Counted from the first letter of the stretch, positions 1 through 48,210 are shown. The stretch: 64,000 nucleotides of DNA from a candidate division WOR-3 bacterium (GCA_039804105.1 JBDRZU010000001.1:1280001-1344000), one strand, 5' to 3'. The notes: generated from the letters alone by a model not told the origin. Made by a program: numbers and translations.

Positions 1-2
1 CA

Positions 3-518
3 CCTGAAAAGTGGTTTTTAATATATTCCGATAATACCTATTCTAAAATAGATAAGAAAGGGTTAATAATAGATTCCAGAATCGATGCATTATATTTGAA
101 AAAGGAAGAGAAATTATTATTTTTTTCTTATCGCAATGCAATAAAAATATTTGATTTAGGAAAATATTATCGAGAAGCAACCGAAGACGAGTTAAATTTG
201 TTTACAAAAGAAGAAATTTTTATATTTAATGAAGGTTTTGATAAAAATCTATTAAGCTCAAAAATGCGAAAAAAAATTTTTATGATACAAAAAAATGAGA
301 TCTTAACAAAAATTAAAAATAATTTTAACCAAGTAGTAAATTATGCTAAAAAATTAAACGTTGATGAAATGTTTGACAAAAACAATAAAAAAATCATTTT
401 TCCAAAAGAAAAGAAAAATATAGAAAAATTATTAAATTTTTTGAATGAGGATTTATACGAATCTCCTATTAGTGGTTTAATATACGAGACAAATTCAAAA
501 AAATTGGTAACTGAATAG
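3..518 (+). CDS. KwaB/DUF4868-like (Kiwa anti-phage) protein, 5'-truncated by the window edge
   Basis: Frame is open from position 3 (PEKWFLIYSDNTYSKIDKKGLIIDSRIDALY...). C-terminus LLNFLNEDLYESPISGLIYETNSKK resembles the KwaB/DUF4868 C-terminal motif. Confidence 0.6.
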   Translation, partial: PEKWFLIYSDNTYSKIDKKGLIIDSRIDALYLKKEEKLLFFSYRNAIKIFDLGKYYREATEDELNLFTKEEIFIFNEGFDKNLLSSKMRKKIFMIQKNEILTKIKNNFNQVVNYAKKLNVDEMFDKNNKKIIFPKEKKNIEKLLNFLNEDLYESPISGLIYETNSKKLVTE

Positions 519-695
519 ATTTATTAATTGAACTTTTTTTAACTAAGAAACAACTTTTAACTTTACGATCTATACTTGATTTTATTGAAGTGATATTTTT
601 AATTAAAGTTGGCTTATGTTGTTAAAAATTGCTTTGTTGGTTTAGAAAAAAGGATAAAGTTGTTTAAAAGTATAAAGATAAAAAGTAAACTATTA

Positions 696-1595
696 TTAAT
701 TTTTAGTACTTGACAAAATATAGTAGATTGAACTTACTTGATTCACGTATGATTCATCTGGATTATATCCATAAAAAATTAATTCAATGTTGTTAAGATC
801 GATTTTTTTATATAGATCAATTAAAATTTTTAATCCTTCTTTTAAACTTTCTTCATCACTTAAAGGTTTAATCGATTTTACTTGCATAATACCAGTAGTT
901 CTTGATTTTTTGCTAAAAAAGAAAAACTTATTTTCTAAAATTCTTATAAATTTTGGCCTATTAAAATTTTCATATATCATAATTGAGAGAATAATGTTTT
1001 TTAAGTTAGGATCTTCAATTTCATTTAAAATTTTAGAAAAATTTTTCTTTAATTTTTGTGCCATTTTGATGATGTAATTTTTTTTTACGTAATCATCCCT
1101 TTGGGAAGTAGAATAATTTTTGTAATTAAAAATACTATAAATATATAAAATTATCAATAACCATAATTCATTTGAAAGTGATTTAATATCAGGAATAATT
1201 AGGTTTTTATTTTTCAGAAGTTTAAAATATGTTATTAAAGAAAATAAAATTATTAAAATGTCGTTTAGTATTTCTTTTTTCCAATTCGTTAAGTAAACTC
1301 TATCGAAAAAAAATTTATAAAAAATTCTTAATAGTATATAAAAAACAGAGACAAAATAAATGTTTTCTATTAAAAAATTAAAATTTAATACATAAAAAAA
1401 AGCAGATATTATAAACAAAAAAATTGAAGGACCTAAAATTTTATAGACAAAATTAAAAGCAGGAGAGTAAAATTGATCATTTTCAAAATTTAAAGGTTCA
1501 TAACCATAAAAAGAGGATTTTTTTCCAAAAAAATTTATAAAAAAGAACAATATAAAAGAAAAAATTAAATGAAAAACAATTTTAATAATTACCAT
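696..1595 (-). CDS. Multi-pass membrane protein with a C-terminal lysozyme/SLT-like domain
   Basis: About 5 hydrophobic helices at the N-terminus, then IMIYEN...TTGIMQV...YGYN, matching the spacing of the E / GxMQ / YN lysozyme-fold motifs. Confidence 0.45.
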   Translation of the reverse strand: MVIIKIVFHLIFSFILFFFINFFGKKSSFYGYEPLNFENDQFYSPAFNFVYKILGPSIFLFIISAFFYVLNFNFLIENIYFVSVFYILLRIFYKFFFDRVYLTNWKKEILNDILIILFSLITYFKLLKNKNLIIPDIKSLSNELWLLIILYIYSIFNYKNYSTSQRDDYVKKNYIIKMAQKLKKNFSKILNEIEDPNLKNIILSIMIYENFNRPKFIRILENKFFFFSKKSRTTGIMQVKSIKPLSDEESLKEGLKILIDLYKKIDLNNIELIFYGYNPDESYVNQVSSIYYILSSTKN

Positions 1596-1708
1596 ATTAA
1601 AAATTTTAATAGATTTTTTTTAAAGTTCAAGATACTGATTAAAAATATTATTATAAGGAAGGTTTTTGAAAAAATATGTGATATCTTTCATTTTAGTTGT
1701 TAACTTTC

Positions 1709-1738
1709 AGGGACGGTGCTTGACTTTTTGACATTTTT
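1709..1738 (+). repeat. 30-bp module-boundary repeat, copy 1 (one mismatch)
   Basis: AGGGACGGTGCTTGACTTTTTGACATTTTT. Confidence 0.95.
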
Positions 1739-1799
1739 GGGGTAATGCTGAAAAAATAATAACTTAAAGGAAATAGGAGATAACTGAAAATTATTGTTT

Positions 1800-1821
1800 T
1801 GTCAGATTAAAATATCTGACA
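1800..1821. promoter_or_regulatory. Perfect inverted repeat TGTCAGAT-N6-ATCTGACA, possible operator
   Basis: Palindrome read directly in the intergenic DNA upstream of the 1972-3806 genes; function inferred. Confidence 0.35.
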
Positions 1822-1971
1822 TGCTTTATGAAAAACTTTATCAATTATTTCAGAAACGAGAGGTATTTTTTTAGATTAATTTGTTTTGATTTATACTAAA
1901 ATAAATTTTTAAGAACAAAATTTTTTATTTTATTAATTGACAAAATAAAAATTCTAATTAAATTATCACTA

Positions 1972-2394
1972 ATGAATTTTATTAATTTAATTAAAATTCA
2001 AAAAAATAACATAGAAATCATTTTACCCCTTGTTTTTGAAAAAAATAAAATTGAATTAAAAGAGAAATTCCAATCTATCTTGGAAACAGAGAATTTTAAT
2101 GTTTTTTGGATTAAAGAAATATTTAAAAACTACAGGGAATTAAAAGTTTTTTTAGAAGAAAAAAATTACAACTTTAAAACAGAAATAAGTATAAATTTTA
2201 AGAAAACAGAGTTTAAAAATAGAACTTATTTTGTAACAATATACAGGACAAGTTTGGTAGGTTTTTCTTCTTTTAATTTTGAAGGGTTTTTGTTAAATGT
2301 TGGAGAAAATTATGATATTGTTAAATGGCTTATAAAATGTAATAAACCTTTCAAAAGAAGGAGGGAGCAAAATGGTTTTTTCCAAAAGATGTAA
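1972..2394 (+). CDS. Hypothetical protein
   Basis: 140-aa ORF preceded by TTGACA(1937)-16-TAAATT(1959); overlaps the next gene. Confidence 0.55.
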   Translation: MNFINLIKIQKNNIEIILPLVFEKNKIELKEKFQSILETENFNVFWIKEIFKNYRELKVFLEEKNYNFKTEISINFKKTEFKNRTYFVTIYRTSLVGFSSFNFEGFLLNVGENYDIVKWLIKCNKPFKRRREQNGFFQKM

Positions 2395-3229
2395 AAATTT
2401 AATTGGTTTAAGAAACCTGGAATTAGAATTTAATGAAACAATCAGGAATAGAATTTATAAGCTAATGGAAAAATTTAATTTAAGTCTAGAAAGAGTTACA
2501 GAAAGTAATTATAATTATGTAATTTATTGTTTTGATGAATTAGTTGAAAATATTAAATACACTTATGGTATTATTGAAAATAATATTGATATAAAAAATA
2601 TCATACATGATTCATCGACTTACTATCTATTTGATATAGTTGAATTATTTTATAATGTTTTAAAAGAGAAAAATGAAGAAAATAATTTTGAGAAAAGGTT
2701 TAATGAAATAATGAAAGAAGAAAAACTTCCATGGATAATGTCAGAGGGAGAAATAATTCAGATATCTTCTATATATCATCAAGAAGTAATCCTGAAACCT
2801 TTAATTTCTTTGTTAAACAAAAGTAAATTTAAAGGTGCAGAAGAGGAACTTATAGAATCATTAAAATTTTTGACAGGAGGAGAATATAAAGAAGCAATAA
2901 ACAATGCCTGGAAAGCAACAGAAAGTATTATTAAGTGTATTACAAAAACCCCAGAAGCAAAACCTGGAGAACTTATTGAAAAAATTAGTAAAATGGATTT
3001 TATTCCAATTGAGTTACAAAAATCGATAGATGACTTTATTTCTGGAGTTTCTTGTTTAAGAAGTTTTAGTGGTTCAGTTCATGGACAGGGAGAGAAAAAT
3101 ATTGATATACCTCAAAATTTTGCAGAATTAGTTATTAATGTAAACGCTACTCTAATGTTATATTTGATAAAAAGTTATAATGATAAAAAAGAAGAAAAAG
3201 AAAAAATAAAAGAAGATATTACTTTTTGA
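2372..3229 (+). CDS. AbiJ-like abortive infection protein (AbiJ-N-type N-terminus + Abi_C/HEPN C-terminus)
   Basis: N-terminal FSKR...IRNRI; C-terminal AINNAWKATESIIK and LRSFSGSVHGQG (HEPN R-x6-H); GGAGG RBS upstream. Confidence 0.7.
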   Translation: MVFSKRCKNLIGLRNLELEFNETIRNRIYKLMEKFNLSLERVTESNYNYVIYCFDELVENIKYTYGIIENNIDIKNIIHDSSTYYLFDIVELFYNVLKEKNEENNFEKRFNEIMKEEKLPWIMSEGEIIQISSIYHQEVILKPLISLLNKSKFKGAEEELIESLKFLTGGEYKEAINNAWKATESIIKCITKTPEAKPGELIEKISKMDFIPIELQKSIDDFISGVSCLRSFSGSVHGQGEKNIDIPQNFAELVINVNATLMLYLIKSYNDKKEEKEKIKEDITF

Positions 3230-3245
3230 TAAAAGGGGGGATAAG

Positions 3246-3806
3246 TTGAAGGCAAAAGTCAAAAAATTTTTCGTTTTTTTTGTTGTTTCATTTATTTTAA
3301 TTATTTTTTTTATTGTTTCTATAATTAATTTTCGTTTTTTTATTAAACATCTTCAGATTATAAAAGATTTTCTAACAGTGCTTCAACTATTAACAATAAT
3401 TATAATTTCAATTTTTTCTGCCTGGTGGACATATAAAACTTTTGGTGAAAAAGAAAGAAGAGAAGAGATAAGAAAAATCAAAAAAACAATCATGGATTCT
3501 CTTATAAGAGTAGTGAATTATATTGAAACTACTAAATTAGTCGAGAAAAAAAATAAAGATTTACCGGGCTTTCCCTTTAAATGTAGAATGGAACTAAGAA
3601 ATTTAATAGTTCCAATTTTTATTGAATTAGAGACATTGGTTTATTTTGATAAAAATAAAAAAGAAAAATTGAAAAATGAACTTTTTACAATTGCTTCTTA
3701 TGAAAATGTTAAAGATTATATAATTGATGAAAGAAAAGATGTTAAACTTGAAGAGAATAATCCCATAGTCCAAAAATTTGAAGAATGGATTAGATTAATA
3801 AATTAG
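3246..3806 (+). CDS. Hypothetical protein with two N-terminal TM helices
   Basis: TTG start after AAGGGGG RBS; two hydrophobic stretches. Confidence 0.65.
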   Translation: MKAKVKKFFVFFVVSFILIIFFIVSIINFRFFIKHLQIIKDFLTVLQLLTIIIISIFSAWWTYKTFGEKERREEIRKIKKTIMDSLIRVVNYIETTKLVEKKNKDLPGFPFKCRMELRNLIVPIFIELETLVYFDKNKKEKLKNELFTIASYENVKDYIIDERKDVKLEENNPIVQKFEEWIRLIN

Positions 3807-3832
3807 GTCTTTTTTGGAGGATTATGTCCTTC

Positions 3833-3862
3833 GGGGACGGTGCTTGACTTTTTGACATTTTT
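3833..3862 (+). repeat. 30-bp module-boundary repeat, copy 2
   Basis: GGGGACGGTGCTTGACTTTTTGACATTTTT exact. Confidence 0.97.
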
Positions 3863-3898
3863 ATAATACTATCGATAAAACAATAACTTAAAGGAGGG

Positions 3899-5122
3899 GT
3901 GATGGAGAAAAATTTTATCGTTTGTCCCAAATGTAAAACAGAGATTGATGTTAATGAAGTTTTGTATTCACAGATTGAGGAGAGTTTAAAAAAAGATTTT
4001 GAAGCAAGATTAAAAGAGAAAGAAGAAAAGTTGAAAAAAGAATTTGAAAATCTCCAGAAAGCACAAGAAGATTTTGAAAAAAAGATAAAAGAAAAGGTGG
4101 AAGAAAAATTAATTGCTGAAAAAAAGGAACTTGAAAAGAAAATAAAAAAGGACTATGAGGTTGAATATTCTTCACAGATTGAAGAGTTTAAAAAAACACT
4201 TGAAGAAAAATCAAATCAAGTAAAAGAGTTGAATAAAACGAAAGCGGAGATAGAAAGGTTAAAGAGAGAAAAAGAGGAGTTAAGAGATCAAATAATACTT
4301 GAAAAAGAAAAAGAATTGAATGAGAAATTGAGAGCAGAAAGAGAAAGAATAAGAAAAACTATTGAAGAAGATATTTATATGAAAATGAAAGAAAAAGATA
4401 AACTTATTGAGGATTTAAAAAAAGAAATAGAAAATGCAAAAAGAAAAGCGGAACAGGGCTCAGTGCAAATTCAAGGAGAGGTTCAGGAACTTGAAATAGA
4501 AAAAATTTTGAAAGAAAATTTTCCAGATGACAAAATTGAGCCAATTGAGAAAGGGAAAAGTGGAGCAGATGTGTTGCAAATAATAATTGAGAAAGGAAGG
4601 CAAATTGGAAAGATATATTATGAAAGTAAAAGAACAAAAACTTTTGGTAAAGATTGGATAAAAAAACTAAAAGAAGATAATCTTGAAAAGAAAGCAGATC
4701 TTCTTGTGTTGGTTACAGATGCATTTCCTGATGGGCATAAGAATTTCTTCAACATGGAAGGTGTCTGGGTATGTTCGCTTGAAGAGTTAAAACCGCTTGC
4801 GATGATTTTAAGGCATATGCTGGTTCAAATCAATTTACAGAAGAATATTCAAAGCAATCGAAAAGAAAAAGCAGAAATTTTGTATGATTATATAACAAGC
4901 AATGAGTTTAAAAATCAATTTGAAGCAATTGTGAACGGTTTTGTTGAACTAAAAAAAGGGTATGATGATGAAAAATTGAAAATGCAAAAAATCTGGAAAG
5001 AAAGAGAGAAACAACTTGAAATGATACTTTCAAATGCTGCTGGTTTATATGGATCTTTTAAAGGTTATCTTGGCGGTTCAATGAAAGAGATAAAGTTATT
5101 GGAAAGTGAAGAGAAAAAATAA
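3899..5122 (+). CDS. DUF2130 family coiled-coil protein with a C-terminal PD-(D/E)xK-like region
   Basis: N-terminal CPKC..EIDVNE, long coiled coil, GSVQIQGEVQELEIE, GADVLQ...IYYESKRTK..W motifs; AAGGAGG RBS. Confidence 0.85.
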   Translation: MMEKNFIVCPKCKTEIDVNEVLYSQIEESLKKDFEARLKEKEEKLKKEFENLQKAQEDFEKKIKEKVEEKLIAEKKELEKKIKKDYEVEYSSQIEEFKKTLEEKSNQVKELNKTKAEIERLKREKEELRDQIILEKEKELNEKLRAERERIRKTIEEDIYMKMKEKDKLIEDLKKEIENAKRKAEQGSVQIQGEVQELEIEKILKENFPDDKIEPIEKGKSGADVLQIIIEKGRQIGKIYYESKRTKTFGKDWIKKLKEDNLEKKADLLVLVTDAFPDGHKNFFNMEGVWVCSLEELKPLAMILRHMLVQINLQKNIQSNRKEKAEILYDYITSNEFKNQFEAIVNGFVELKKGYDDEKLKMQKIWKEREKQLEMILSNAAGLYGSFKGYLGGSMKEIKLLESEEKK

Positions 5123-5154
5123 AAAAATTATTAAATTATAGAATTTGTAAAATT

Positions 5155-5184
5155 GGGGACGGTGCTTGACTTTTTGACATTTTT
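5155..5184 (+). repeat. 30-bp module-boundary repeat, copy 3
   Basis: Exact copy. Confidence 0.97.
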
Positions 5185-5233
5185 GAAATAATAATGAAAA
5201 TTTTTAAACAAAGACAAAAAGACAAATAAAAAA

Positions 5234-6361
5234 TTATACTGCCAAACTTGAAAGGTACTCTCCTGCTGGAATAATTTTTATTCCATCTTTTTTTAATTCA
5301 TATTTTAGATTATGAACGAGTTGAATATATTCTAATTGAGGAAACAACTTTTTAAAATATAATAAATTTTTATCAGGATTATCATCTGAAAGTTTTACTT
5401 CAACCATTTGAATAATTTTGTTGTTTTCAGTTATTACAAAATCAATTTCTTTTTTTTCTTTTGTCCTTATGTAATGAAGTTGAAGATCTTTGCCTTCTGA
5501 GTCCTGTAAAAATTGGCAATGTTTCAAAAGTGAAACAGCAACAGTGTTTTCAAGTTTTAAACCATCATCTTTGTCAATAAAACCGGAGTCAAAAAAATAA
5601 ACTTTTGGTTCTTTTAAAATTGAACGAGAAATATTTTTATGAAAAGGTCTTATTAGGAAAATTATATTCAATGCTTCAAGAATAAAAATGTATTTTTTGA
5701 CTGTGTTTACAGAAATCTGTAAATCCTGAGCAAGAGATGAATAAGAAATTGGGGAACCAACTCTATCTTTGAGTAAATACAAAAGAGTTTTAATCGATCT
5801 TATTTCGAGAATTTTTGCAAAATCAAGGACATCTGTAGTTATTATATCTGAATAATATTCTTTTCTCCATCTTTGAGATTCTGTTTCTGAGTCAGAAAGA
5901 AAAGGTTCAGGAAAACCACCAAATTTGTTTAATTTTTCTACAGCATCATAAGGTTTTAAAATATGTTGAAGTTCTTTTACTGAAAATGGAAAAAGATGAT
6001 ATAAATAATATCTTCCTGCGAGTGAATCACCTGTGTGTTTAAAGATGTCAAGTTTTGCACTACCAGTTATTAAAAGTTTCTGTTTTTTTTCTTTTGTATC
6101 ATAGACACCTTTTAGATAGTTTTTCCACTTTTCAAGTTTTTGAATTTCATCTAAAACGACGAGTTGAGTATCAAGTGTCCATTCCTTGTTTAGAATAGTT
6201 CTTTTATCTTTTATATCGTCAAAATTTAAATAAATGCTCTTTTGGAAATTTTTTAAAATCTCCTTTGAAAGATAAGTTTTTCCAACTTGACGTGGTCCAG
6301 TTAAAATGACCATCTTTTTATTCAAATCTTTTAAAATAAATCGTTGCAAATACCTTTCCAT
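5234..6361 (-). CDS. AAA_14 ATPase + DUF4143 protein, copy A
   Basis: GPRQVGKT Walker A, LDEIQ Walker B, TGS..., SLAGR, KxYFFDSG, EIDF..EVK. Start set at ATG 6361 by alignment with copy B. Confidence 0.9.
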   Translation of the reverse strand: MERYLQRFILKDLNKKMVILTGPRQVGKTYLSKEILKNFQKSIYLNFDDIKDKRTILNKEWTLDTQLVVLDEIQKLEKWKNYLKGVYDTKEKKQKLLITGSAKLDIFKHTGDSLAGRYYLYHLFPFSVKELQHILKPYDAVEKLNKFGGFPEPFLSDSETESQRWRKEYYSDIITTDVLDFAKILEIRSIKTLLYLLKDRVGSPISYSSLAQDLQISVNTVKKYIFILEALNIIFLIRPFHKNISRSILKEPKVYFFDSGFIDKDDGLKLENTVAVSLLKHCQFLQDSEGKDLQLHYIRTKEKKEIDFVITENNKIIQMVEVKLSDDNPDKNLLYFKKLFPQLEYIQLVHNLKYELKKDGIKIIPAGEYLSSLAV

Positions 6362-6464
6362 ATTAACTAATATAGAATACTTTGCAAAAAAGTCAAGATT
6401 ATTTTGCAAAGAACTGCAAAAAAGTCAAGATTATAAATTGTTTATAAATAAAAAATTTTATTTC

Positions 6465-6494
6465 GGGGACGGTGCTTGACTTTTTGACATTTTT
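6465..6494 (+). repeat. 30-bp module-boundary repeat, copy 4
   Basis: Exact copy. Confidence 0.97.
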
Positions 6495-6563
6495 GGGAAT
6501 AAGCAGTTGAAAATGCTTATCAATAAAGGAGTTTGAGAGTTTTGGAAACAAGGATAAGAAACT

Positions 6564-6592
6564 AAAAAAAGGGGTAATTTTTGCCCCTTTTT
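6564..6592 (-). terminator. Intrinsic terminator downstream of the LVIVD gene
   Basis: A7-GGGGTAA-TTT-TTGCCCC-T5 hairpin with flanking A/T tracts. Confidence 0.7.
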
Positions 6593-6636
6593 ATTGTGGA
6601 TGACAAATATTTAAAAGTTTTCTAAACCTGTAGATA

Positions 6637-9066
6637 TTATTTTATCACAAAAACTTTTTTGTTTATCTTAGTATCTCCATCTTTTAGTTTAACAAAATAA
6701 ATACCTGATGGAAGTTGATCGAACTTATAATAATGTGTCCCTATTTTTTTATTTTTCTCTTTATATATTTGGTTGCCCATCAGGTCGTATATTTCGAACT
6801 CATTTTCAAAATTTGATACAGAATAGCAAATACCTTTCAAATCAATCTCTAATTTTTTTACTTTTTGATCACGATTTTTTATATCGTTTATACTCCATGT
6901 GTTTATTGTAAATGTATCAATTTGGTTTGATGTTGTAACATTATCGAAACTATCAACTGCTTCAACATACCAGAAATATATACCATCTGGTAATGGAATA
7001 GGTTCGGTATATGTAGTATCTGTCGTAGTTGCAATTAAATTATCATAAGAATATACTCGATATTCTTTAAAGTGAGCATCGGTTGATTTATGCCAGATAT
7101 ATGTTGGAGTGTTATCGGTAATTTCTCCTGATGGAGATATGAGATCAAATTTGGTTGGTGGAACAAAATCTGAACTTAATATATAAAACCCAGTAGTTCC
7201 ATTTGCAAGATAAATATAATCGTTGTTTACAAAAACTTCGTAACATTCTCCATAGGTGTTATAATAACCTACTTCTTTTGGAAAATATGGATTTGAGACA
7301 TCTATGACTCTGACTCCATAATCAAAATCAGCAACATAAGCGTAATTGCCTTCAACATAAACACTATGAGCTATTCCATCTGTATCATAATATCCAACCT
7401 CAACCGGATTTGCTGGATCCGTTACATTTATTATTCTTAAGCCACTGTAAAAATCAGCAACATAAGCATAGTTACCTGAAACATAGACACCATAAGCACC
7501 ACCTGGTGTATCATAATAACCGACTTCAACAGGGCTTGATGGATTTGATATATCTATAATTCTTAACCCATTTAAAAAACCAGCAAGATAAGCATGGTTG
7601 CCTGAAACATAAACATCGTAAGTCCACCCAGGAGGAACAATTGAACCAACCTGTGTAGGATTTGAAGGATTTGAGATATTAATTATTCTAAGTCCATAAG
7701 AACCATCAGCAAGATATAAATAATTTCCATCTACAAAAAGTTTCGAAGCATAAACAGAAGACTGGAAAGATCCGACCTCTACTGGATTAATAGGATTTGT
7801 GATATTTATTACTCTTAAACCTTTATAGTTATCAGCTACATAGGCATAATTGCTAAAAATATGTACACCTGTTGCATAACCTGGAGTATCACAGTTTCCA
7901 AGTTTTACAGGGTTTGAAGGGTTTGAGATATCAATTATCTGTAGACCATCATCACCACTTGCAATGTATGCATAATTTCCACTTATATATAAACCCTCTG
8001 CGATTCCTGTGCTAATAAAATTTGATATTTCGACAGGATTTGAAATGTTTGAAACATCAATTATTTTCAATCCAGAACTTCCATCTGCAAGGTAAACATA
8101 ATTGTTTAAAACAAAAATTCCCTGAGATTCTCCAGAAGTGTTATATGAACTTGTTAATCCTGGTGATGCGGGATTTGAAACATTGATTATTTTTAGTCCA
8201 TTTGTGTCATCTGCAAGATAGGCGTAATTACCAATAACATAGACATCCATAGCATTAAAACTGCTAAAAACACCAGATTCAACTGGTGTTGTGGGATCAA
8301 CTATATTGATTATTCTAAGACCTCCATTTTTATCTGCAATGTATGCATAATTTCCAGAGACATACACTCCATTAGCATCACCAGGTGTATTATAAGAACC
8401 GATTATATATGGGGAAATGGGGTTAGTTATATTAATAATTTTTAATCCTTCGGTTCCAGATGCAACATAAGCATAATTACCCGAAACATAAAGTGCTCTT
8501 GCAATACCAGGAATAATACATGAACCTTTTTCCTGTGGATTTGAAGGATTTGAAACATCTAATATATGTAAACCTGTTAAACTGTCAAGAATATAAGTAT
8601 AACTTGCAACAACAAAAACTGTCCGGATATCGTTTAAAGAATATGTGGTTATTAACGATGGTTTTTTTGGATCTGAAACATCAACAATTTTTAAGCCGTT
8701 TGTTCCATTTGCAACATAAGCATAATTACCTGAAACAAAAATGTCTATTGCTGATGTAGAAAAATCTATATAACCTGTCAATTCTGGATTTGCTTTGTTG
8801 GATATGTTCAATATCACAAGATTATTTCCCATACCTGCATAAGCAAAAGTATCAACAACAAAAACATCATAAGTTTCTCCAAAATATGGTATCCTTCCAA
8901 CTCCTCTGATATTCAAACTATCAGAAGCCCAAAAAGGTGAATAGTCCCATAATGTTCTTTGTTGTTTTTCTGTAGTTGTGTTGAACTCTTGAAAAGGTAT
9001 TTTAATTTTGGAAAACAGGTTCAGTCCAAGGAAAAGAATTATAACAAACAAAAAGAATCTTTTCAT
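6637..9066 (-). CDS. Secreted LVIVD-repeat (beta-propeller) protein with a T9SS-like C-terminal sorting domain
   Basis: Signal peptide; 14 repeats of about 42 aa (VYVSGNYAYVAD..GLRIINISNPSNP); C-terminal IYDLMG...LPSGIYFVK...KKVFVIK. Confidence 0.85.
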   Translation of the reverse strand: MKRFFLFVIILFLGLNLFSKIKIPFQEFNTTTEKQQRTLWDYSPFWASDSLNIRGVGRIPYFGETYDVFVVDTFAYAGMGNNLVILNISNKANPELTGYIDFSTSAIDIFVSGNYAYVANGTNGLKIVDVSDPKKPSLITTYSLNDIRTVFVVASYTYILDSLTGLHILDVSNPSNPQEKGSCIIPGIARALYVSGNYAYVASGTEGLKIINITNPISPYIIGSYNTPGDANGVYVSGNYAYIADKNGGLRIINIVDPTTPVESGVFSSFNAMDVYVIGNYAYLADDTNGLKIINVSNPASPGLTSSYNTSGESQGIFVLNNYVYLADGSSGLKIIDVSNISNPVEISNFISTGIAEGLYISGNYAYIASGDDGLQIIDISNPSNPVKLGNCDTPGYATGVHIFSNYAYVADNYKGLRVINITNPINPVEVGSFQSSVYASKLFVDGNYLYLADGSYGLRIINISNPSNPTQVGSIVPPGWTYDVYVSGNHAYLAGFLNGLRIIDISNPSSPVEVGYYDTPGGAYGVYVSGNYAYVADFYSGLRIINVTDPANPVEVGYYDTDGIAHSVYVEGNYAYVADFDYGVRVIDVSNPYFPKEVGYYNTYGECYEVFVNNDYIYLANGTTGFYILSSDFVPPTKFDLISPSGEITDNTPTYIWHKSTDAHFKEYRVYSYDNLIATTTDTTYTEPIPLPDGIYFWYVEAVDSFDNVTTSNQIDTFTINTWSINDIKNRDQKVKKLEIDLKGICYSVSNFENEFEIYDLMGNQIYKEKNKKIGTHYYKFDQLPSGIYFVKLKDGDTKINKKVFVIK

Positions 9067-9172
9067 ATTTCCTCCAGAATATGTTTCAAATTGTTTGAAA
9101 TAATTTTTTCATGATTTCTCCCTGAGTTTTATTGTAATAAAAGCAAAAAAATTTTCAATATTTTTCAATTTT

Positions 9173-9202
9173 GGGGACGGTGCTTGACTTTTTGACATTT
9201 TT
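9173..9202 (+). repeat. 30-bp module-boundary repeat, copy 5
   Basis: Exact copy. Confidence 0.97.
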
Positions 9203-9211
9203 TAAGTATAT

Positions 9212-9485
9212 CGCACCCTAAAGGGTGCGGCTACAAAAAAACAAAAAACAAAAAATTCATGGTAGCCTCAGGCTTCAGTCTGAGAGAAGAAACATAAAAC
9301 ATATAGCGCAACCTAAAGGTTGCGGCTACCATGCGAGGGATTTTGAAATGGTAGCATCAGGCTTTAGCCCGAGTGGAATTTTCGCAACCTAAAGGTTGCG
9401 GCTACCAAAAAAAATAAACAAAATAAATGTGGTAGGCGCGGGTTTCAGATTGCGGGATATCGTGCACCCTGAAGGGGGCGGCTAC
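9212..9485. repeat. Cluster of seven 23-bp GTAG-type REP-like hairpins in alternating orientation (REPIN/BIME-like)
   Basis: Units at 9212-9234(-), 9262-9284(+), 9307-9329(-), 9351-9373(+), 9383-9405(-), 9432-9454(+), 9463-9485(-); each is GTAG + 1 nt + a stem-loop, e.g. GTAGCCGCAACCTTTAGGTTGCG. Confidence 0.85.
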
Positions 9486-9502
9486 AGATAGTTTATATCT
9501 TT

Positions 9503-9521
9503 GGGGACTGTGCTTGACTTT
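9503..9521 (+). repeat. Module-boundary repeat, copy 6 (degenerate, 3'-truncated)
   Basis: GGGGACTGTGCTTGACTTT. Confidence 0.85.
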
Positions 9522-9577
9522 GTTGGATAATGAAAAATTTTCATACAAAGACAAAAAGAAGAAAAACGAAAAAATGA

Positions 9578-10705
9578 TTATACTGCCAAATTTGAAAGGT
9601 ATTCTCCTGCGGGAATAATTTTTATTCCGTCTTTTTTTAACTCATATTTTAAATTGTGAACGATTTGAATATATTCCAATTGTGGGAAAAACTTTTTAAA
9701 ATATAATAAATTTTTATCGGGATTTTCATCTGAAAGTTTTACTTCAACCATCTGAATAATTTTGTTATTTTCAGTTATAACAAAATCAATTTCTTTTTTT
9801 TCTTTTGTTCTTATGTAATGAAGTTGAACATCTTTGCCTTCTGAGTCCTGTAAAAATTGGCAATGTTTCAAAAGTGAAACAGCAACAGTGTTTTCAAGTT
9901 TTAAACCATTATCTTTGTCAATAAAACCGGAGTCAAAAAAATAAACTTTTGGTTCTTTTAAAATTGAACGAGAAATATTTTTATGAAAAGGTCTTATTAA
10001 AAAAATTATATTCAATGCTTCAAGAATAAAAATGTATTTCTTTACTGTGTTTACAGAAATCTGTAAATCCTGAGCGAGAGATGAATAAGAGATTGGGGAA
10101 CCAACTCTGTCTTTGAGTAAATATAAAAGAGTTTTAATCGATCTTATTTCGAGAATTTTTGCAAAATCAAGAACATCTATAGTTATTATATCTGAATAGT
10201 ACTCTTTTCTCCATCTTTGAGCTTCAGTTTCTGAATCAGAAAGAAATGGCTCAGGGAAACCACCGAATTTATTTAATTTTTCTACAGCATCGTAAGGTTT
10301 TAGAATATGTTGAAGTTCTTTTACTGAAAAGGGAAAAAGATGATAGTAAAAATACCTTCCAGCAAGAGAATCTCCTGTCTGTTTGAAAATATCAAGTTTT
10401 GCACTGCCTGTTATTAAAAACTTTTGATTTTTCTCTTTTGTATCATATACGCCTTTTAAAAAAGTTTTCCATTTTTTAAGTTTCTGAATTTCATCTAAAA
10501 CGATGAGTTCAGTATCAAGTGTCCATTCTTTATTTAGAATAATGTTTTTATCTTTAGTATCATCAAAATTCAAATAAATACTCTTTTGAAAGTTTTTAAA
10601 AATCTCCTTTGCAAGATAAGTTTTCCCAACCTGTCTTGGTCCAGTTAAAATAACCATCTTTTTACTTAAATCTTTTAAGATAAATTTTTGTAAATACCTT
10701 TCCAT
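9578..10705 (-). CDS. AAA_14 ATPase + DUF4143 protein, copy B
   Basis: Same motifs as copy A; about 25 substitutions in 375 aa by manual count. Confidence 0.9.
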   Translation of the reverse strand: MERYLQKFILKDLSKKMVILTGPRQVGKTYLAKEIFKNFQKSIYLNFDDTKDKNIILNKEWTLDTELIVLDEIQKLKKWKTFLKGVYDTKEKNQKFLITGSAKLDIFKQTGDSLAGRYFYYHLFPFSVKELQHILKPYDAVEKLNKFGGFPEPFLSDSETEAQRWRKEYYSDIITIDVLDFAKILEIRSIKTLLYLLKDRVGSPISYSSLAQDLQISVNTVKKYIFILEALNIIFLIRPFHKNISRSILKEPKVYFFDSGFIDKDNGLKLENTVAVSLLKHCQFLQDSEGKDVQLHYIRTKEKKEIDFVITENNKIIQMVEVKLSDENPDKNLLYFKKFFPQLEYIQIVHNLKYELKKDGIKIIPAGEYLSNLAV

Positions 10706-10785
10706 ATTGACTAATATATACTATATTGCAAAAAAGTCAAGATTTTTTTGCAAAATATTGCAAAAAAGTTAAAATCATTATATCT

Positions 10786-10815
10786 GGGGACGGTGCTTGA
10801 CTTTTTGACATTTTT
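10786..10815 (+). repeat. 30-bp module-boundary repeat, copy 7 (right edge of the island)
   Basis: Exact copy; housekeeping-type genes follow. Confidence 0.97.
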
Positions 10816-10916
10816 GAAAAATATTTAATGCAAATATATTTAAAATAAAAACTTTTGAGAATTAAAACTTTTTAAAAAAGTGTTGATTTCCATAGAAGTT
10901 TTCTTAAAATAATACA

Positions 10917-11687
10917 ATGATTTTTAATGAATATGTTGTAAAACTTCTGATAATTTTACCATCAATTTTTATCGCAGGTTTTGTTGATTCTATTGCTGGT
11001 GGTGGAGGATTAATTTCAGTTCCAGCATACCTTGCTGCTGGTATTCCTCCGCATTTTGCTCTTGGAACGAATAAGTTTTCATCAACATTTGGAACTCTTT
11101 TTGCCACTATCACATACAAAAAAAACAGAATGATTGATTTGAAAGTTGCTCTGACAGCAGGAATATTCGCACTTTTGGGTTCGTCTCTTGGAGCGAAGAC
11201 CGTTCTTTTGATTAAACCAGATTTTCTTAGATATATTCTCTTGTTTCTGATACCAGTTATAACGATTTTTGTGTTAATCAAAAAAGATTTTGGGATGGTT
11301 GATAGATCAAAAAGTATCGATGGAAGAAGAGCAATTTTTCTCTCATCTCTGGCTGGTTTAACAATCGGTTTTTATGATGGATTTTTTGGGCCGGGAACTG
11401 GAACTTTTTTGATTTTATTTTTTTCTTTACTTTTAAAATATGATTTCAGAATGAGTAATGGAAATACAAAAGTTGTAAACCTTTCTTCGAATGTTGCTGC
11501 ACTTATCACCTTTATCATAAATGGAAAAGTTCTGTTTTTAATAGGAATTCCCGCTGCTATCTGTGGTATCGCAGGAAATCTTTTGGGATCAAAGTTTGCC
11601 GTTCAAAAAGGAAACAGATTAATCAAGATATTTTTTGTTTTGGTTCTTGCAATACTTTTTGTAAAAATAGTGCTTGATACTTTTTAA
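10917..11687 (+). CDS. TSUP (TauE/SafE) family membrane transporter
   Basis: AGFVDSIAGGGGLI, GTNK, GFYDGFFGPGTG motifs. Confidence 0.9.
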   Translation: MIFNEYVVKLLIILPSIFIAGFVDSIAGGGGLISVPAYLAAGIPPHFALGTNKFSSTFGTLFATITYKKNRMIDLKVALTAGIFALLGSSLGAKTVLLIKPDFLRYILLFLIPVITIFVLIKKDFGMVDRSKSIDGRRAIFLSSLAGLTIGFYDGFFGPGTGTFLILFFSLLLKYDFRMSNGNTKVVNLSSNVAALITFIINGKVLFLIGIPAAICGIAGNLLGSKFAVQKGNRLIKIFFVLVLAILFVKIVLDTF

Positions 11688-11688
11688 T

Positions 11689-13854
11689 CTATTTCAAAAT
11701 CAAAAAACCTTCTTTTAATGTTTTATCTCCATCAACAACAAGGAAATATTTTCCAGAGTTCAAAAAGTTAAGATCAAAATCTATATGTCTTTCAACTTTG
11801 AAATTTTTGTAAAAAACTTTTCGACCAGTAATATCAAAAATGTTTATTCTCAAGTGTTTTGCAGAGTTTGATAGATTGTTTATCGTTAGAATTCTATTAG
11901 AGAAGTTTATCGATAAAGTGCCATCATCTTCTGTATCAGGTAAAGAATCTTTTATTATAGATCTTAAAGTGTAAAAGAAAAATCTGTCAGATTTTTTTGT
12001 AAATCCAACAGTGTTGTTATGTGGAGTTACTAAATAATATTTTAAAGTATCATTTGTTGAGATGAAAGTGTCTATGTTAGATGGATATAAAACGGTTCTT
12101 GTTTTTGAAGTTGTTATCGGATATATATTATCTATTTTTACTCCGTTTGTATTGATTGTTCCATCATCGTAAACAGTTTTCAACCTTATAGAAATTTCTT
12201 TATTCAAAAATTTTGATAAGGGATAAGAATATCTTCTCCATGTTGTGTTTGTGCCAGTAAAAATACCGTTTATTGTATCAAGTGGTTCATAGAAAAAACC
12301 ATCATAAGAGTACTCCAGGAATGCTTTGTCATAATTGGTTTCAAGGTCATAAGACATATAAAATGTTAAAGAGTCAGTGGTGCTTTGAACTAAAAATCTA
12401 TCAAAAAATTCAAGAGAGGATATCGTTGTATCTTTTTTCAAAGGTCTAAACGAATAAGGTGCAGAATATGGTGAAGTTTTTGAAAGTTCGATTCTGAAAG
12501 TTTTATAGTCAGAAGAAATTATTGAATCAACAGATCCATTCAAACTATCTCGATATGTATAAACTGAATCGTAAACTTCAACTTTATAATAATCTGCCTT
12601 GTTTGAATTTTTTAAACTCCATAAAATTTGATTACCAGTTGAACTGATGGATGGTTTTAATGGGACCTCTTTTGGAAGACCATAAACAGATTCACATAAA
12701 AATGCTGAATAGAGTATACCGGGAAAAACTCTTCGATGGAGTTGTGCAAGAGTAGTTGTTGGCGGTGAGAATCCGGTATCGATTTCAAAAGTGAAAGGAA
12801 GAGTTGTAAATCCTTTAACGAATTTTGTATAGCCGTATATCCATCCATCAGAATCACCAGAGGTTGGATATAAAGCGTCAGATTTTTCCGGGGTGTATGT
12901 TCCAGATGTTTGTTTGGTCATCTTTGATGCTATTTTTGTTGCAAGAGAACTCAAAAGTGTATTATCTGGTGCAGTATCTGATGTTGCACCATAAGGGTAT
13001 AAGACAAGTTCACTGTAAGAATGGAGTGAAATAGAAATGTTGAATGAAAACCTCTTGATAAGGTTCATCAACGATTGAACCTCTTTTTCAGAAGCAGAGT
13101 ATGGACCACAATAAACATCTGAAGAAGGATAGTGTGTTGTGCTTGAATTGTAGATTGCTCCCCATTCTCCCCTGATATCACCGTTGACCTGTCCGGGATA
13201 GTTTCTGTTTAGGTCAACTCCATAAACAGAATTTCTTAAAGTTCTATTTTTTCTCCAGAGTTCATTGTTCTGGTCTCTTGAATAGTAATATCCATCAGGA
13301 TTAAACATTGGAAGAACAACTATAAAAGTTGAATCTATCAACCTTTTTATAGAACTGTTTGTATTGTATGCTCTTAAAATTGAATCAACAAAAAATAAAG
13401 ATGTTGAAATCGTCTGCCATTCTCTTGCGTGATGGTTCGCAACAAGAAAGAACTGGTATCTAACAAGACATGTATCAGGATTTTTCCCGTTTATTTTCAT
13501 AATGACGATAGGTCTATTGTTATAAGTTGTTCCAATAGTTTCAACATCAACAAGTTGTGGAAAATTTGTTGCAAGTTTTGTTATCGAATCATAAACCTGT
13601 GCTGTTGTTGGATAAACATCTTTATAAAATTTTTTTTCAACTATAAAATATTTGATACCACTATTTTTCAATGTTGTTATCTGATCTTCATCCATAACGA
13701 TATCAACTGTTTGGTCGTTTGCTCTTCCTGCAACATCGATGAATTTATATATTGAGGATACTTTTTGAAAATCCTCTCTGTTGATCCTCACAATCTCCTT
13801 TGAAAATATGAATAAACTTGAAATGATGATGAGAATTGCAAAAAACTTTTTAAT
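11689..13854 (-). CDS. Secreted M14 zinc carboxypeptidase with a T9SS-like CTD (probable ATT start at 13854)
   Basis: HHAREW, NPDG, WRKNR, GVDLNRNY, SLHSY, FTFE motifs; the frame continues upstream of GTG 13791 into a signal peptide. Confidence 0.85.
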   Translation of the reverse strand: MKKFFAILIIISSLFIFSKEIVRINREDFQKVSSIYKFIDVAGRANDQTVDIVMDEDQITTLKNSGIKYFIVEKKFYKDVYPTTAQVYDSITKLATNFPQLVDVETIGTTYNNRPIVIMKINGKNPDTCLVRYQFFLVANHHAREWQTISTSLFFVDSILRAYNTNSSIKRLIDSTFIVVLPMFNPDGYYYSRDQNNELWRKNRTLRNSVYGVDLNRNYPGQVNGDIRGEWGAIYNSSTTHYPSSDVYCGPYSASEKEVQSLMNLIKRFSFNISISLHSYSELVLYPYGATSDTAPDNTLLSSLATKIASKMTKQTSGTYTPEKSDALYPTSGDSDGWIYGYTKFVKGFTTLPFTFEIDTGFSPPTTTLAQLHRRVFPGILYSAFLCESVYGLPKEVPLKPSISSTGNQILWSLKNSNKADYYKVEVYDSVYTYRDSLNGSVDSIISSDYKTFRIELSKTSPYSAPYSFRPLKKDTTISSLEFFDRFLVQSTTDSLTFYMSYDLETNYDKAFLEYSYDGFFYEPLDTINGIFTGTNTTWRRYSYPLSKFLNKEISIRLKTVYDDGTINTNGVKIDNIYPITTSKTRTVLYPSNIDTFISTNDTLKYYLVTPHNNTVGFTKKSDRFFFYTLRSIIKDSLPDTEDDGTLSINFSNRILTINNLSNSAKHLRINIFDITGRKVFYKNFKVERHIDFDLNFLNSGKYFLVVDGDKTLKEGFLILK

Positions 13855-46044: not shown

Positions 46045-48210
46045 ATGAAAACAAAAATTTTATTTTTTATTATTCTTGTTATCTTTATAAAGTCTTTTGC
46101 GGAAATAAGGATTCTTGTTGATAAGAACGATTTTGATCTTCTGAAAAAAGATTTGAAATCTATCGATATAATAGGATTTGAAAAGGATAAAAATTATCTT
46201 CTTAATCTTACAGATGAAGATTTAAAAATAGTTAACAGTTTGAATTTAAAGTATAAAATCTATGAACCTAAAAGTTACAAAATCGATTATAAAAGTTTAG
46301 CAGGATATTTTTCCTATATAGATTCTTTAGTTTTAAAATTCCAAAACATAGTAAAACTTGAAACTCTTGGTTTCACTTTCAACAACAATCCTCTTGTGAT
46401 CTTAAAAATCAATGGAATAGATGCTTCCAACTACTCAGGACAGAACACTTTTCTGTTGATGGCTTTACATCATGCAAGAGAATGGCAAACAACAGTTACA
46501 GCAATATTTTTTGCAGAATCTTTACTTGCTTCTTATGGAAAGGATAGTTTGATAACGGAACTTATAGATAAAAATTTTATAATAATATTTCCTATAGTTA
46601 ACCCCGATGGATACTATTATTCACACGATGATCCTTCAGGTGATAATTACTGGAGAAAGAACAGAACATATAGAAATGGTTATTATGGAGTTGATCTGAA
46701 TAGAAACTATGGGGGAGCATGTAATCGAATAATTCAGAGTGATTGGGGTTATCCATCAGGTATAACACATAACCCTTCTGATCTTTATACATACTGTGGA
46801 CCCTATCCATCGAGTGAAATTGAGGTCAGATGTGTTGAGGATATTGTAAAAAACTATAATGTGAAAATTTCTTTGTCACTTCACTCCTATGGAGAAGATA
46901 TTCTTTATCCATGGACTTCCGTTTACAACTTTACTCTCGATGAACATATAATAACAGATTTTGCTTACAGGATAGCATCCAGAATGAAAAAAAATAGTGG
47001 AGAACCTTATGATACTTTAAGGTCTGCTGCTTTATATGCAACAACAGGTGATACTGATGATTGGATCTATGGGTTTTCAAAATTTGTTAAAGGTAAAACA
47101 ACGATTCCTTTTACTGTTGAAATGGATAACACTTTTCAGCCACCCGCATCAACCCTTGATATTTTATGCAGAAATGTTTTCCCTGGTTTTTTGGAAGGAT
47201 TAATTTTAACTGACAGTGTTGAGGAAAAAACCGAAGAGATACCTTTAAAACCTAAAGTCGAAATCGTTTCGGATTCCCTTTTTTGGACACTTCAAAATGG
47301 TGAATTTTCAGATTTTTATAGAGTAAAAATATATTCAGGAATGGAAAAATTAATTGATAGTTTAAACGATCCTGATCTTTATAACTTGATAAACATAAAT
47401 ATCGATTCGTCAGTATACTATTCTCCAAAATACTCTTTCCATCCAAAAAATCTTAACAGCTCGTTTTCGATAATAGAGGGCAAATATAAAAAACAATATT
47501 TCACAAACGATACATTTTATATGATGTTAAGATATGACCTTGAAAAGGATTATGATGTGCTGCTTGTAGAATATTCAACAGATGGGTTCGAGTATCACCC
47601 GATAGATACAAATTTTTACAAGTTTACTGGAACGAATCTGAACTGGAACCTTTTGAAAATTCCTTTTAAAGGGGATACAAACTATATATTTTTAAGAATC
47701 AGAACACTCTTTGATCCATTCACTTTAAACAGTGGTGTCTGGATTGACAATATTGGTTATCTGACCTCATTTAAAAGTGATTCGATATTTAAAGATTCTA
47801 TTGTTGACACAACGATGTTGATTGAGATCCCAACAGTTGTTCAGACGCATAAGAATTTTTTTGAAGTTATTCCCCATAAAAATAATTTCGGTTTTACAGT
47901 TTCTTCAGATTATATAGAATATTATTTTCCTCTATCTTTACCACCGATTTTTCTTGATAGTTTAAAAGTTGAGGATTACAGTATCGAATTTGATTTTAAA
48001 GAAAAACAACTAATTTTAAAATCTCTGCTTACAAAGAGAAAAGATCTATTGTTGAAAATATACGATCTGAGTGGAAAAAGGATTTACTTTGAAAAATTTT
48101 CTTTTGAAAAAGAAAAGAAGATCGATTTAAAATTTTTGAAGAGTGGAAGATATTTCTTGCTTTTTGAAGGCAAAGACAGAAAAAAATATTCGGTTTTGAT
48201 TTTAAAATGA
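46045..48210 (+). CDS. Secreted M14 zinc carboxypeptidase with a T9SS-like CTD (paralog of 11689-13854)
   Basis: HHAREWQT, NPDGYYYS, WRKNRT, GVDLNRNY, SLHSY; CTD IYDLSGK...LKSGRYF. Confidence 0.87.
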   Translation: MKTKILFFIILVIFIKSFAEIRILVDKNDFDLLKKDLKSIDIIGFEKDKNYLLNLTDEDLKIVNSLNLKYKIYEPKSYKIDYKSLAGYFSYIDSLVLKFQNIVKLETLGFTFNNNPLVILKINGIDASNYSGQNTFLLMALHHAREWQTTVTAIFFAESLLASYGKDSLITELIDKNFIIIFPIVNPDGYYYSHDDPSGDNYWRKNRTYRNGYYGVDLNRNYGGACNRIIQSDWGYPSGITHNPSDLYTYCGPYPSSEIEVRCVEDIVKNYNVKISLSLHSYGEDILYPWTSVYNFTLDEHIITDFAYRIASRMKKNSGEPYDTLRSAALYATTGDTDDWIYGFSKFVKGKTTIPFTVEMDNTFQPPASTLDILCRNVFPGFLEGLILTDSVEEKTEEIPLKPKVEIVSDSLFWTLQNGEFSDFYRVKIYSGMEKLIDSLNDPDLYNLININIDSSVYYSPKYSFHPKNLNSSFSIIEGKYKKQYFTNDTFYMMLRYDLEKDYDVLLVEYSTDGFEYHPIDTNFYKFTGTNLNWNLLKIPFKGDTNYIFLRIRTLFDPFTLNSGVWIDNIGYLTSFKSDSIFKDSIVDTTMLIEIPTVVQTHKNFFEVIPHKNNFGFTVSSDYIEYYFPLSLPPIFLDSLKVEDYSIEFDFKEKQLILKSLLTKRKDLLLKIYDLSGKRIYFEKFSFEKEKKIDLKFLKSGRYFLLFEGKDRKKYSVLILK

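Follow-up and report, generated by a model that had tools for sequence, protein, structure and literature searches.

A 30-bp repeat that bounds accessory modules in a candidate division WOR-3 genome as the probable terminal inverted repeat of a TIRtron

A stretch of 64,000 nucleotides from a candidate division WOR-3 bacterium (GCA_039804105.1, JBDRZU010000001.1:1280001-1344000), here called the window, carries between positions 1709 and 10815 an array of accessory genes partitioned by direct copies of a 30-bp sequence, GGGGACGGTGCTTGACTTTTTGACATTTTT. This 30-mer very likely is the terminal inverted repeat (TIR) of a Y1 transposase gene on the same contig, which together form an element of the TIRtron type. 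Six + strand matches at three mismatches or fewer were found in the window, against none in each of 100 shuffles, and a decayed seventh copy, also on the + strand, lies among them. The copy at 1709..1738 (one mismatch, the first base being A) forms the left end of the array and is followed by three + strand open reading frames (ORFs; 1972..3806), of which the middle one encodes AbiJ (AbiJ_NTD4, DUF7014 and Abi_C; 2372-3226) and the outer two are unknown. An exact copy at 3833..3862 precedes the gene of a DUF2130 protein (3899..5122, +), and the next, at 5155..5184, stands on the 3' side of a first ATPase gene with AAA_14 and DUF4143 domains (5234..6409, -). The exact copy at 6465..6494, 55 nt past the start of this ATPase gene, leads to the fourth module, which holds a terminator-like hairpin at about 6560-6595 and the gene of an LVIVD-repeat surface protein with a type IX secretion tail (Por_Secre_tail; 6637..9066, -). 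Only 9 nt separate the exact copy at 9173..9202 from a + strand cluster of GTAG-type repetitive extragenic palindromic (REP) hairpins (9212..9487), made up of four CGCACCCTAAAGGGTGCGGCTAC-like units with inverted partners between them. The decayed copy (9503..9532; G7T and an internal deletion) belongs to a duplicated ATPase module, whose AAA_14 + DUF4143 gene occupies 9578..10705 on the - strand, and a last exact copy lies at 10786..10815. The two ATPase modules share 88.7% DNA identity and hold the only two DUF4143 ATPase genes of the genome.

A first-pass annotation had described this array as a new cassette system, and as a description of the window it stands up well. The seven positions on the + strand (six at one mismatch or fewer plus the decayed copy), the start-to-start spacings given by the repeat finder with the decayed copy included (2124, 1322, 1310, 2708, 330 and 1283 bp), the module contents (by Pfam and the repeat finder) and the lack of further copies at up to three mismatches in the other 53 kb of the window were all recovered. 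The last copy does border conserved backbone, since homology to four congeners (G001 to G004) begins at 10777-10905; the first backbone gene is TauE/SafE (10917..11687, +; Pfam and homology). The GGGG left edge of the repeat was said to be sharp and is less so: a T and then C/T usually precede it, as judged by eye, and BLAST pairs of copies reach 15-45 nt upstream. About half of the copies also share a weak downstream pattern. The 30-mer alone has a minimum free energy (MFE) of 0 as DNA on both strands, that is, no secondary structure, and the ORFs inside the array lie on both strands (four +, three -).

The site is not specific to this locus. Its occurrence across the genome beside housekeeping genes had been named as the observation that would speak against a cassette system. 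A genome scan returned exactly this distribution. In the assembly that contains the window (G000; 1.81 Mb in 2 contigs, 30% GC, 85% complete) the 30-mer has 38 copies at up to three mismatches (25 exact, ten with one, two with two and one with three mismatches), divided 19/19 between the strands; 32 lie outside the window, and the reversed control pattern gave none. With a crude longest-ORF caller, 28 of the 38 are wholly between ORF calls and the remaining ten touch calls that are mostly over-long starts or short ORFs, the one real overlap being with the end of the transposase gene. Neighbours include the rRNA operon, a tRNA, rsmG, rubrerythrin, a sugar transferase, oxaloacetate decarboxylase beta, CstA, Fe-hydrogenase and the Mnh antiporter, together with several surface proteins of the type IX secretion system (T9SS) and defence genes. 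Of 37 copies (the 38th sits at a contig end), 18 have the next ORF downstream in their own orientation, and thus there is no promoter-like rule. Beyond this genome, a metagenome scan found the exact 30-mer at only 4 loci, and several copies of its 16-mer core occur in named metagenome-assembled genomes (MAGs) labelled candidate division TA06, Aminicenantes and Stahlbacteria; sought as a word in the literature, the core gave no match. Thirteen public sequencing runs were listed, nine of them with part of the stretch (best share 0.38), and no RNA run with the stretch was among them.

The key to the repeat lies about 209 kb before the window, on contig C1, where the only Y1_Tnp (IS200-like) gene found in G000 is located (C1:1070311-1071222); given the completeness of the assembly, a second Y1 gene is possible. 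Exact inverted 30-mers flank this gene at 1070314(+) and 1071271(-), the left TIR 48 nt before the start codon and the right TIR encoding the last residues of the protein. The arrangement is general: among the best homologous loci (G000 and ten loci from nine relatives, two of which are short of upstream sequence because the contig starts there or bases are masked), the gene stands between exact inverted words of 14-30 nt in 11/11, and the left TIR always stands 45-100 nt before the start codon. The outer TIR end reads GGGGACGG, GGGACGG or GGACGG in ten of these loci and ATGCCCGGAGC in the eleventh. The inner part varies between genomes and mostly consists of two tandem 8-9 bp boxes, CTTGACTTT/TTGACATTT in G000, TTGACAGTG/TGACATTT in two congeners, and TTGGATTTT twice, TTGTAAA twice or TTGACGATA/TGACA at other loci. 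The gene is single-copy in G000 and syntenic in three congeners. Repeat and gene also vary together: eight of 39 relatives have the G000-type 30-mer (up to three mismatches) and all eight have a Y1 homologue, whereas none of the 11 relatives lacking the homologue has the 30-mer, counts that are descriptive only and overstate the support, as the kin are not independent. The sharpest contrast is offered by the congener G004 (99% complete), which has neither. The idea that the enzyme would be encoded outside the window or act in trans agrees with these results, the Y1 gene being the likely enzyme and one that could act in trans; the upstream search that had been recommended also turned up four further copies on the - strand at C1:1266566-1272173.

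Some details of the flanking repeats are worth recording in their own right. The reverse complement of the TIR at C1:1070314-1070343 (locus L046, 2314-2343) contains an ATG that is the ribosome-site-preceded start (MSKSQAPSP...) of a glycosyltransferase gene, and the same TIR codes for the last residues of the transposase. A mini-ORF starting from the reverse-strand ATG of the repeat was considered and set aside as incidental; it ends after 10-24 codons in the window copies and is a real start only for this one glycosyltransferase gene. In the congeners G002 and G003, whose own transposase is flanked by an AGTG variant, an exact G000-type 30-mer is retained beside an LVIVD paralogue (C25:53363 and C14:81636, respectively), with flanks only ~70% identical to those of G000.

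The conserved position ahead of the gene invites a regulatory explanation, in which the 30-mer would be a promoter with two TTGAC -35-like hexamers plus a site for an upstream factor, defining a regulon to which recombination is incidental. The repeat does contain TTGACT and TTGACA, the rRNA promoters of the organism resemble the canonical TTGACA-17-TATAAT, a T/A-rich TTAAA follows 13-18 nt past the repeat in about half of the copies, and strong conservation would suit a protein-binding site. An element of this kind is nevertheless extremely unlikely: besides the lack of consistent co-orientation, the copies at 5155, 6465 and 9173 are met by convergent genes whose 3' ends they point into, the 3' end of the transposase gene carries one copy as inverted partner, and Rfam gave no match on window positions 1-12000 at E up to 1. 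A sigma-54 promoter (GG-N10-GC) was ruled out by eye, the -12 GC position reading TTGA.

The transposase itself matches Y1_Tnp in Pfam (E 3.5e-12). Its top NCBIfam model is that of the REP-associated tyrosine transposases (RAYTs; REP_Tyr_transpos) with 59.7 bits, under the family cut-off of 80, and the IS200 model reaches 23.1 bits. Nine aligned homologues show no variation in the HUH histidines (H58, H60), Y117 or the WSS motif, and from this alignment an AlphaFold model with a mean pLDDT of 85 was obtained. A phmmer search against the PDB sequences found no match, and a nine-sequence profile gave weak matches only (E 0.016-0.022), to ISDra2 TnpA and 4er8. At the level of structure, the best Foldseek match was 4er8_A, the E. 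coli REP-associated transposase with a REP hairpin (E 1.8e-7), followed by the IS608 and ISDra2 TnpA proteins (E 3.5e-6 to 1e-5). A Foldseek-independent structure search aligned residues 1-179 with 4er8_A (TnpA-REP; Z 16.7, root-mean-square deviation 2.4, 154 residues aligned) and residues 219-300 with DnaA domain IV (8btg_A, 1l8q_A, 3pvp_A and 1j1v_A; Z 7.9-8.4, 75-80 aligned), while generic helix-turn-helix (HTH) domains scored 6.2 or less against this tail. Judged by the model, the protein would combine a RAYT-type nuclease fold with a DnaA-domain-IV-like tail.

Elements with this layout have been described. Di Nocera, De Gregorio and Rocco (2013; PMC3733652) introduced the TIRtron as a RAYT-like gene (TIRYT) set between long inverted repeats that bear no relation to REPs. 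The motif GGGGWSAS is common to some TIRs, some reach over the 3' end of the gene, and there are "moderately abundant" TIR families, met with singly, as dimers or in groups. In the classification of Quentin et al. (2018; PMC6006769) most TIRYTs belong to TnpA-Y1 subclass 2.1, with C-terminal extensions like Bac_DnaA_C, HTH_23 or HTH_28, and it is left open there whether this domain reads the TIR. The correspondence is close. A RAYT-like Y1/HUH gene is enclosed by inverted repeats that are long, non-palindromic and begin in a GGGG motif, the one on the 3' side overlaps the gene end, the C-terminal domain is DnaA_C-like (here by fold only), and the TIR belongs to a moderately abundant dispersed family of singles and groups, here 38 copies. 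The notion of a new kind of system is accordingly not borne out, the 30-mer falling among the TIR families of TIRtron/TIRYT elements set out in PMC3733652. What differs is the host, an uncultured low-GC lineage, the GTAG-REPs, which here occur only beside TIRs whereas PMC3733652 calls most TIRs unrelated to REPs, and the direct TIR arrays that bound defence and surface modules shuffled between species, for which the available parts of PMC3733652 and PMC6006769 offer no description. In the literature searched, the term TIRYT occurred only in these two papers, and none of the papers listed by a combined search for RAYTs and defence islands linked the two.

The relation to the better known REP/REPIN-RAYT systems (Nunvar 2010; Bertels and Rainey 2011; Ton-Hoang 2012; 4er8) is one of shared habit and different substrate. 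Both have a single-copy, vertically kept Y1 gene flanked by inverted repeats, a repeat dispersed in intergenic DNA and long conserved, and a similar nuclease fold. In contrast, the 30-mer forms no hairpin and has no GTAG, its copies number 38 and not hundreds, no close inverted doublets (REPINs) of it exist in G000, and the enzyme has a predicted extra DNA-binding tail. The TnpA Y1 enzymes of the IS200/IS605 group (IS608, ISDra2) share the HUH/Tyr nuclease fold, but their elements have subterminal hairpins, unlike left and right ends and no inverted repeats, and are multi-copy, the gene travelling with its ends. A miniature inverted-repeat transposable element, with inverted TIRs 70-300 bp apart and no gene, was not found in G000 either, where the closest (+,-) pair is the TIRtron itself (957 bp); TIR pairs 57-115 bp apart occur in other named MAGs (loci L074, L078, L090, L110 and L149; positions only).

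How the enzyme might use the repeat can be pictured from its parts. The DnaA-domain-IV-like tail would bind the two tandem boxes CTTGACTTT and TTGACATTT in the inner TIR half, the HUH/Tyr domain would nick and rejoin DNA at the conserved outer end (T-Y|GGGGACGG), and TIR copies could be spread in trans by the TIRYT. REP hairpins offer possible further substrates. G000 has seven GTAG-type REP units in three clusters, each of which shares its strand with a TIR 10-42 nt away, and G001 has 11 units in five clusters, each 16-67 nt from a TIR core and again on the same strand, although only 0.75% of the G001 genome lies within 150 nt of a TIR. Because the only Y1 enzyme of G000 shares its fold with the enzyme that cuts GTAG REPs, the TIR may be where the nuclease docks and so comes within reach of the adjoining hairpin.

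Comparison with the congener G001, which has ~89% DNA identity to G000 over 78% of contig C1 and 99.6% of contig C2, provides a view of what the copies have done since the two species parted. For each of 12 TIR sites, a single G001 contig carries the two flanks in collinear order with one TIR between them; further orthologous sites lie on small contigs, G001 being fragmented around many TIRs. In 19 orthologous pairs the TIRs are identical at 563 of 570 positions, whereas the 60-nt flanks agree at 869 of 1204 positions before the repeat (72%) and 913 of 1175 after it (78%). Such conservation fits a bound site or concerted evolution, as has been reported for REPIN-RAYT systems. Separately, twelve G001 contigs of 540-1010 bp (C4-C20; loci L031-L042) carry one TIR each near the middle and match G000 TIR sites in a 250-kb region otherwise missing from G001, apparently through an effect that the repeat had on assembly or binning.

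The array itself has changed between the two species. The orthologous G001 array (C3:268000-284000) has nine TIRs in one orientation and the G000 modules in another order. It begins with the first 324 nt of the DUF2130 module, which end at the next TIR, followed by an unrelated 1-kb unit; the ATPase module comes third, 91% identical, its homology stopping at the last base of the TIR that ends at 6494 in the window. The AbiJ block minus the AbiJ gene, a REP unit and the first 270 nt of the LVIVD module, again ending at the next TIR, occupy the fourth to sixth places, and another unrelated unit, a REP unit and the backbone complete the order. Both truncated modules stop exactly at the GGGG edge of the next TIR. 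The loss of the AbiJ gene is internal, with no TIR at its ends. Elsewhere in the genome, a TIR, a 2.4-kb LVIVD gene and a second TIR in G000 correspond to one TIR in G001, of which the first 30 nt after it resemble one G000 copy and the later bases the other.

To place these events in a genome-wide frame, differences of 500 bp or more between collinear G000/G001 blocks were collected, with the main island and a 250-kb stretch absent from G001 left out. A TIR lies at or just inside a boundary in four of the 17 differences, where about 0.14 would be expected by our own arithmetic (TIR windows make up ~0.4% of the genome), and the other 13 have none. TIRs are therefore strongly enriched at structural differences, while most differences lack TIRs and most TIRs are stable. 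Relative to G001, G000 has a 5.5-kb insertion (C1:191311-196767) with a resolvase-like match that contains an in-frame TAG, and no TIR at its ends. The differences without TIRs, the presence of copies in every gene context with no preferred orientation towards the downstream ORF, and the internal loss of AbiJ would all suit a view of the TIRs as passive litter, selfish or neutral copies that survive in permissive, fast-changing intergenic DNA while modules change by unrelated processes. Against this view, the copies are not decaying, as the contrast with their flanks shows; the homology of shuffled modules stops at or inside a TIR, and the enrichment at boundaries is considerable. We therefore rate this view as very unlikely.

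We consider it likely, with room for doubt, that the 30-mer is a TIRtron TIR forming a dispersed family kept near-invariant at the same intergenic sites, and that its copies are points at which accessory blocks change. Blocks would be gained, lost, duplicated and re-ordered at TIRs, either by action of the transposase or by ordinary recombination across 30-60 bp of identical repeat. Several observations weigh against this interpretation. Y1 enzymes act on single-stranded hairpins and the 30-mer has none, nor is there a consistent IS200-like subterminal hairpin after it, a candidate that was tried and rejected (mean z -0.68; 6/38 below -1.5). The RAYT family score lies below its cut-off, Pfam at E up to 1 detects no HTH in the tail of any of the nine members (9/9), and the DnaA-IV-like tail, assigned by fold alone, has a Z of ~8 in the middling range of the tool. 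The TIR start GGGGACGG agrees with the TIRtron motif GGGGWSAS at 7/8 positions, with G for A at position 7. With 12 collinear and 19 pairable sites, most TIR copies are without sign of activity, the majority of structural differences have no TIR, no identical (recently moved) module copies exist within G000, and the co-occurrence of gene and repeat rests on related genomes. The available portions of PMC3733652 and PMC6006769 contain no TIRYT activity or assay, and the wider literature search found none.

The window turns out to be the right arm of a 25-kb island. Its left arm has four (-) TIRs at C1:1266566, 1267563, 1271975 and 1272173, with an AbiEii-like nucleotidyltransferase and another LVIVD gene. 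The centre, between the TIRs at 1272173(-) and window position 1709(+), encodes a PLD-SNF2 helicase, an Eco57I-type methylase, a KwaB-like ORF and an unannotated ORF, and the right arm is formed by the seven (+) TIRs of the window array. At the same backbone site, 69 bp separate the left flank from TauE in G004, where the site is empty. G002 has 10.8 kb of unrelated DNA there, inside which a (-) and a (+) TIR lie 10.5 kb apart and which contains a CRISPR-Cas operon (Cas6, TM1802, Cas7, Cas5, Cas3, Cas4, Cas1), and G003 has 6.5 kb of unrelated DNA with a (-) and a (+) TIR 4.9 kb apart, an ankyrin protein and unknowns. Other (-,+) TIR pairs enclose a type I restriction-modification (R-M) system (HsdR, HsdM) in G000, a restriction helicase-endonuclease, DarT, a Macro protein and a methylase in G001, and AbiJ, a methylase and a PLD-helicase in G002. 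Among the defence genes searched for in G000, the type I methylase, both Cas1 genes and two methylases of the Eco57I type are within 5 kb of a TIR, with distances taken by hand; one N6_Mtase match on contig C2 does not lie within that distance. The link of the repeat to the structure of defence islands is suggestive but unproven.

Two features of the island genes deserve mention. A PLD-SNF2 helicase (1050-1120 aa) and an Eco57I-type methylase with a TaqI_C domain (1070-1220 aa) recur as a pair, each time beside TIRs, twice in G002 (loci L261 and L266) and at least once, probably twice, in G000 (C1:1272246-1279173; C1:475-481 kb), which looks like a two-gene restriction or defence system. At the right edge of the island centre (window 3..1595), the KwaB-like ORF (3-515, +) is cut by the window start, and its neighbour (696-1592, -) is a divergent, AT-rich ORF of 298 aa without family match that may be the KwaA partner of a Kiwa system.

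Taken at face value, these islands recall a dedicated cassette system in which the TIRYT excises and inserts units of TIR plus cargo at TIRs, as an integron does with attC, and defence and surface genes are actively stockpiled. Such a system would explain why complete gene units are bounded by direct TIR arrays, why their order differs between G000 and G001 with breakpoints at TIRs and two modules cut exactly at a GGGG edge, and why there is one clean gain or loss of one module with one TIR. It would also account for the defence loci between TIR pairs, which were counted in four species and include the type I R-M system and the PLD-helicase/methylase/Kiwa block in G000, the restriction enzyme with DarT/Macro and methylase in G001, and CRISPR-Cas and AbiJ/methylase/helicase in G002, as well as for the empty site in G004, which has neither TIR nor TIRYT. 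On the other hand, at least 12 TIRs are stable singletons beside housekeeping genes, the ATPase modules at 88.7% identity are not recent copies, and identical 30-bp direct repeats need no enzyme to permit deletion and duplication. Conserved housekeeping DNA also lies inside some TIR pairs (hydrogenase/CstA, the rRNA operon, and a polysaccharide cluster that in G001 is collinear), and consecutive pairs within 25 kb in G000 follow no rule of orientation, with five (-,+) and three (+,-) by our own count. We regard such a system as unlikely. Of the excisable platform put forward in the first-pass annotation, then, the site as a module boundary, the altered order in G001 and the single difference between site-module-site and one site hold; against it, 19 sites are at the same place in two species and no integron feature is present. 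Likewise, its suggestion that relatives would show modules changing at the repeat is borne out by re-ordering and truncation at TIRs in G001 and not by the 13 differences that lack them.

The comparison with integrons can be made explicit, and here the earlier verdict that the array is neither a classical integron nor a CRISPR locus is upheld. Direct site repeats part small gene units beside backbone, the cargo includes defence genes and unit order varies between relatives, as in integrons. Unlike in integrons, the 30-mer has no attC-type fold and no consistent hairpin occurs in the next 45 nt, the cargo genes have promoters and terminators of their own and occur in both orientations, and the site occurs genome-wide beside housekeeping genes. 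No IntI integrase gene lies by the array; the only two Phage_integrase genes of G000 (C1:656101 and window 48207-49094) are Xer-like, and neither adjoins it. The window gene, at a distance of 37 kb, scores 308/298 bits with XerC/XerD and 151 bits with the integron integrase model, under its cut-off of 265. A CRISPR array is likewise not indicated, as the repeats are 330-2708 bp apart with whole genes in the intervals. In the reading that we favour, the window looks cassette-like because TIR copies are places where accessory DNA changes, and a dedicated integron-like platform is not needed.

A more specific route by which the HUH nuclease could build defence islands is conceivable, though we hold it to be doubtful. 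The TIRYT and its TIRs would capture and shuffle cassettes, with two TIRs whose GGGG ends face each other acting as a landing pad. Facing GGGG ends have the arrangement that an excised element shows where its ends abut; DNA of foreign origin or from an excision would be joined between them, and each event would add a TIR. Repeated events of this kind would yield what the island displays, four (-) copies, a central restriction/Kiwa block and seven (+) copies with one module each. Type I R-M, CRISPR-Cas, DarTG and restriction loci in three congeners likewise lie inside (-,+) TIR pairs. GGGG ends do face the island in the defence islands seen; genome-wide the orientations stand at 5 vs 3.

Whichever process is at work, this genome is a compact case, with one intact gene, 38 near-invariant end-repeats and four related species whose corresponding sites are empty, occupied by one repeat or filled with other defence systems. 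If the transposase makes the changes, defence islands in uncultured lineages would be assembled in a manner distinct from integrons, phage satellites and integrase-borne islands, and the 30-mer would be a handle for finding new defence genes. If not, what looks like a cassette platform can, as this case shows, be the work of a conserved dispersed repeat, and a single search of the whole genome for the site is enough to decide the matter.

Several smaller observations concern the repeats and the array. Short partial tandem duplications of the outer TIR end plus a few flank bases (e.g. TTAAAATCGGGGACGGTGCTTG twice) are found just outside full copies in several genomes, in G000 at C1:1067649-1067716 and in the 1267563 region and elsewhere at loci L057, L058, L061 and L063; they could be slippage, or traces left by repeated rounds of cutting and joining. 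Each DUF4143 ATPase gene has just upstream of it (6383-6434; 10727-10778) two direct copies of TGCAAAAAAGTCAAGATTAT, 32 nt apart, which on the strand of the ATPase gene read AATCTTGACTTTTTTGCA and are similar to TIR inner boxes (CTTGACTTTTTGACA); these pairs may serve as an operator that either the HTH of the ATPase itself or the tail of the TIRYT recognises. LVIVD/T9SS genes have, between their stop codon and the TIR, a conserved stretch of ~100 nt (window 6495-6636; C1:472722-472986 and 1271889-1272004 in G000), with a small hairpin that shows compensatory changes (AAGCA..TGCTT vs GAACA..TGTTC), followed by ATCAATAAAGGAG and a bidirectional terminator. The stretch, without an Rfam match, could be a 3' untranslated region element or a small RNA. 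Finally, the LVIVD gene of the window contains, between 7187 and 8751, nine copies of a 126-nt (42-aa) repeat with 61-81% identity.

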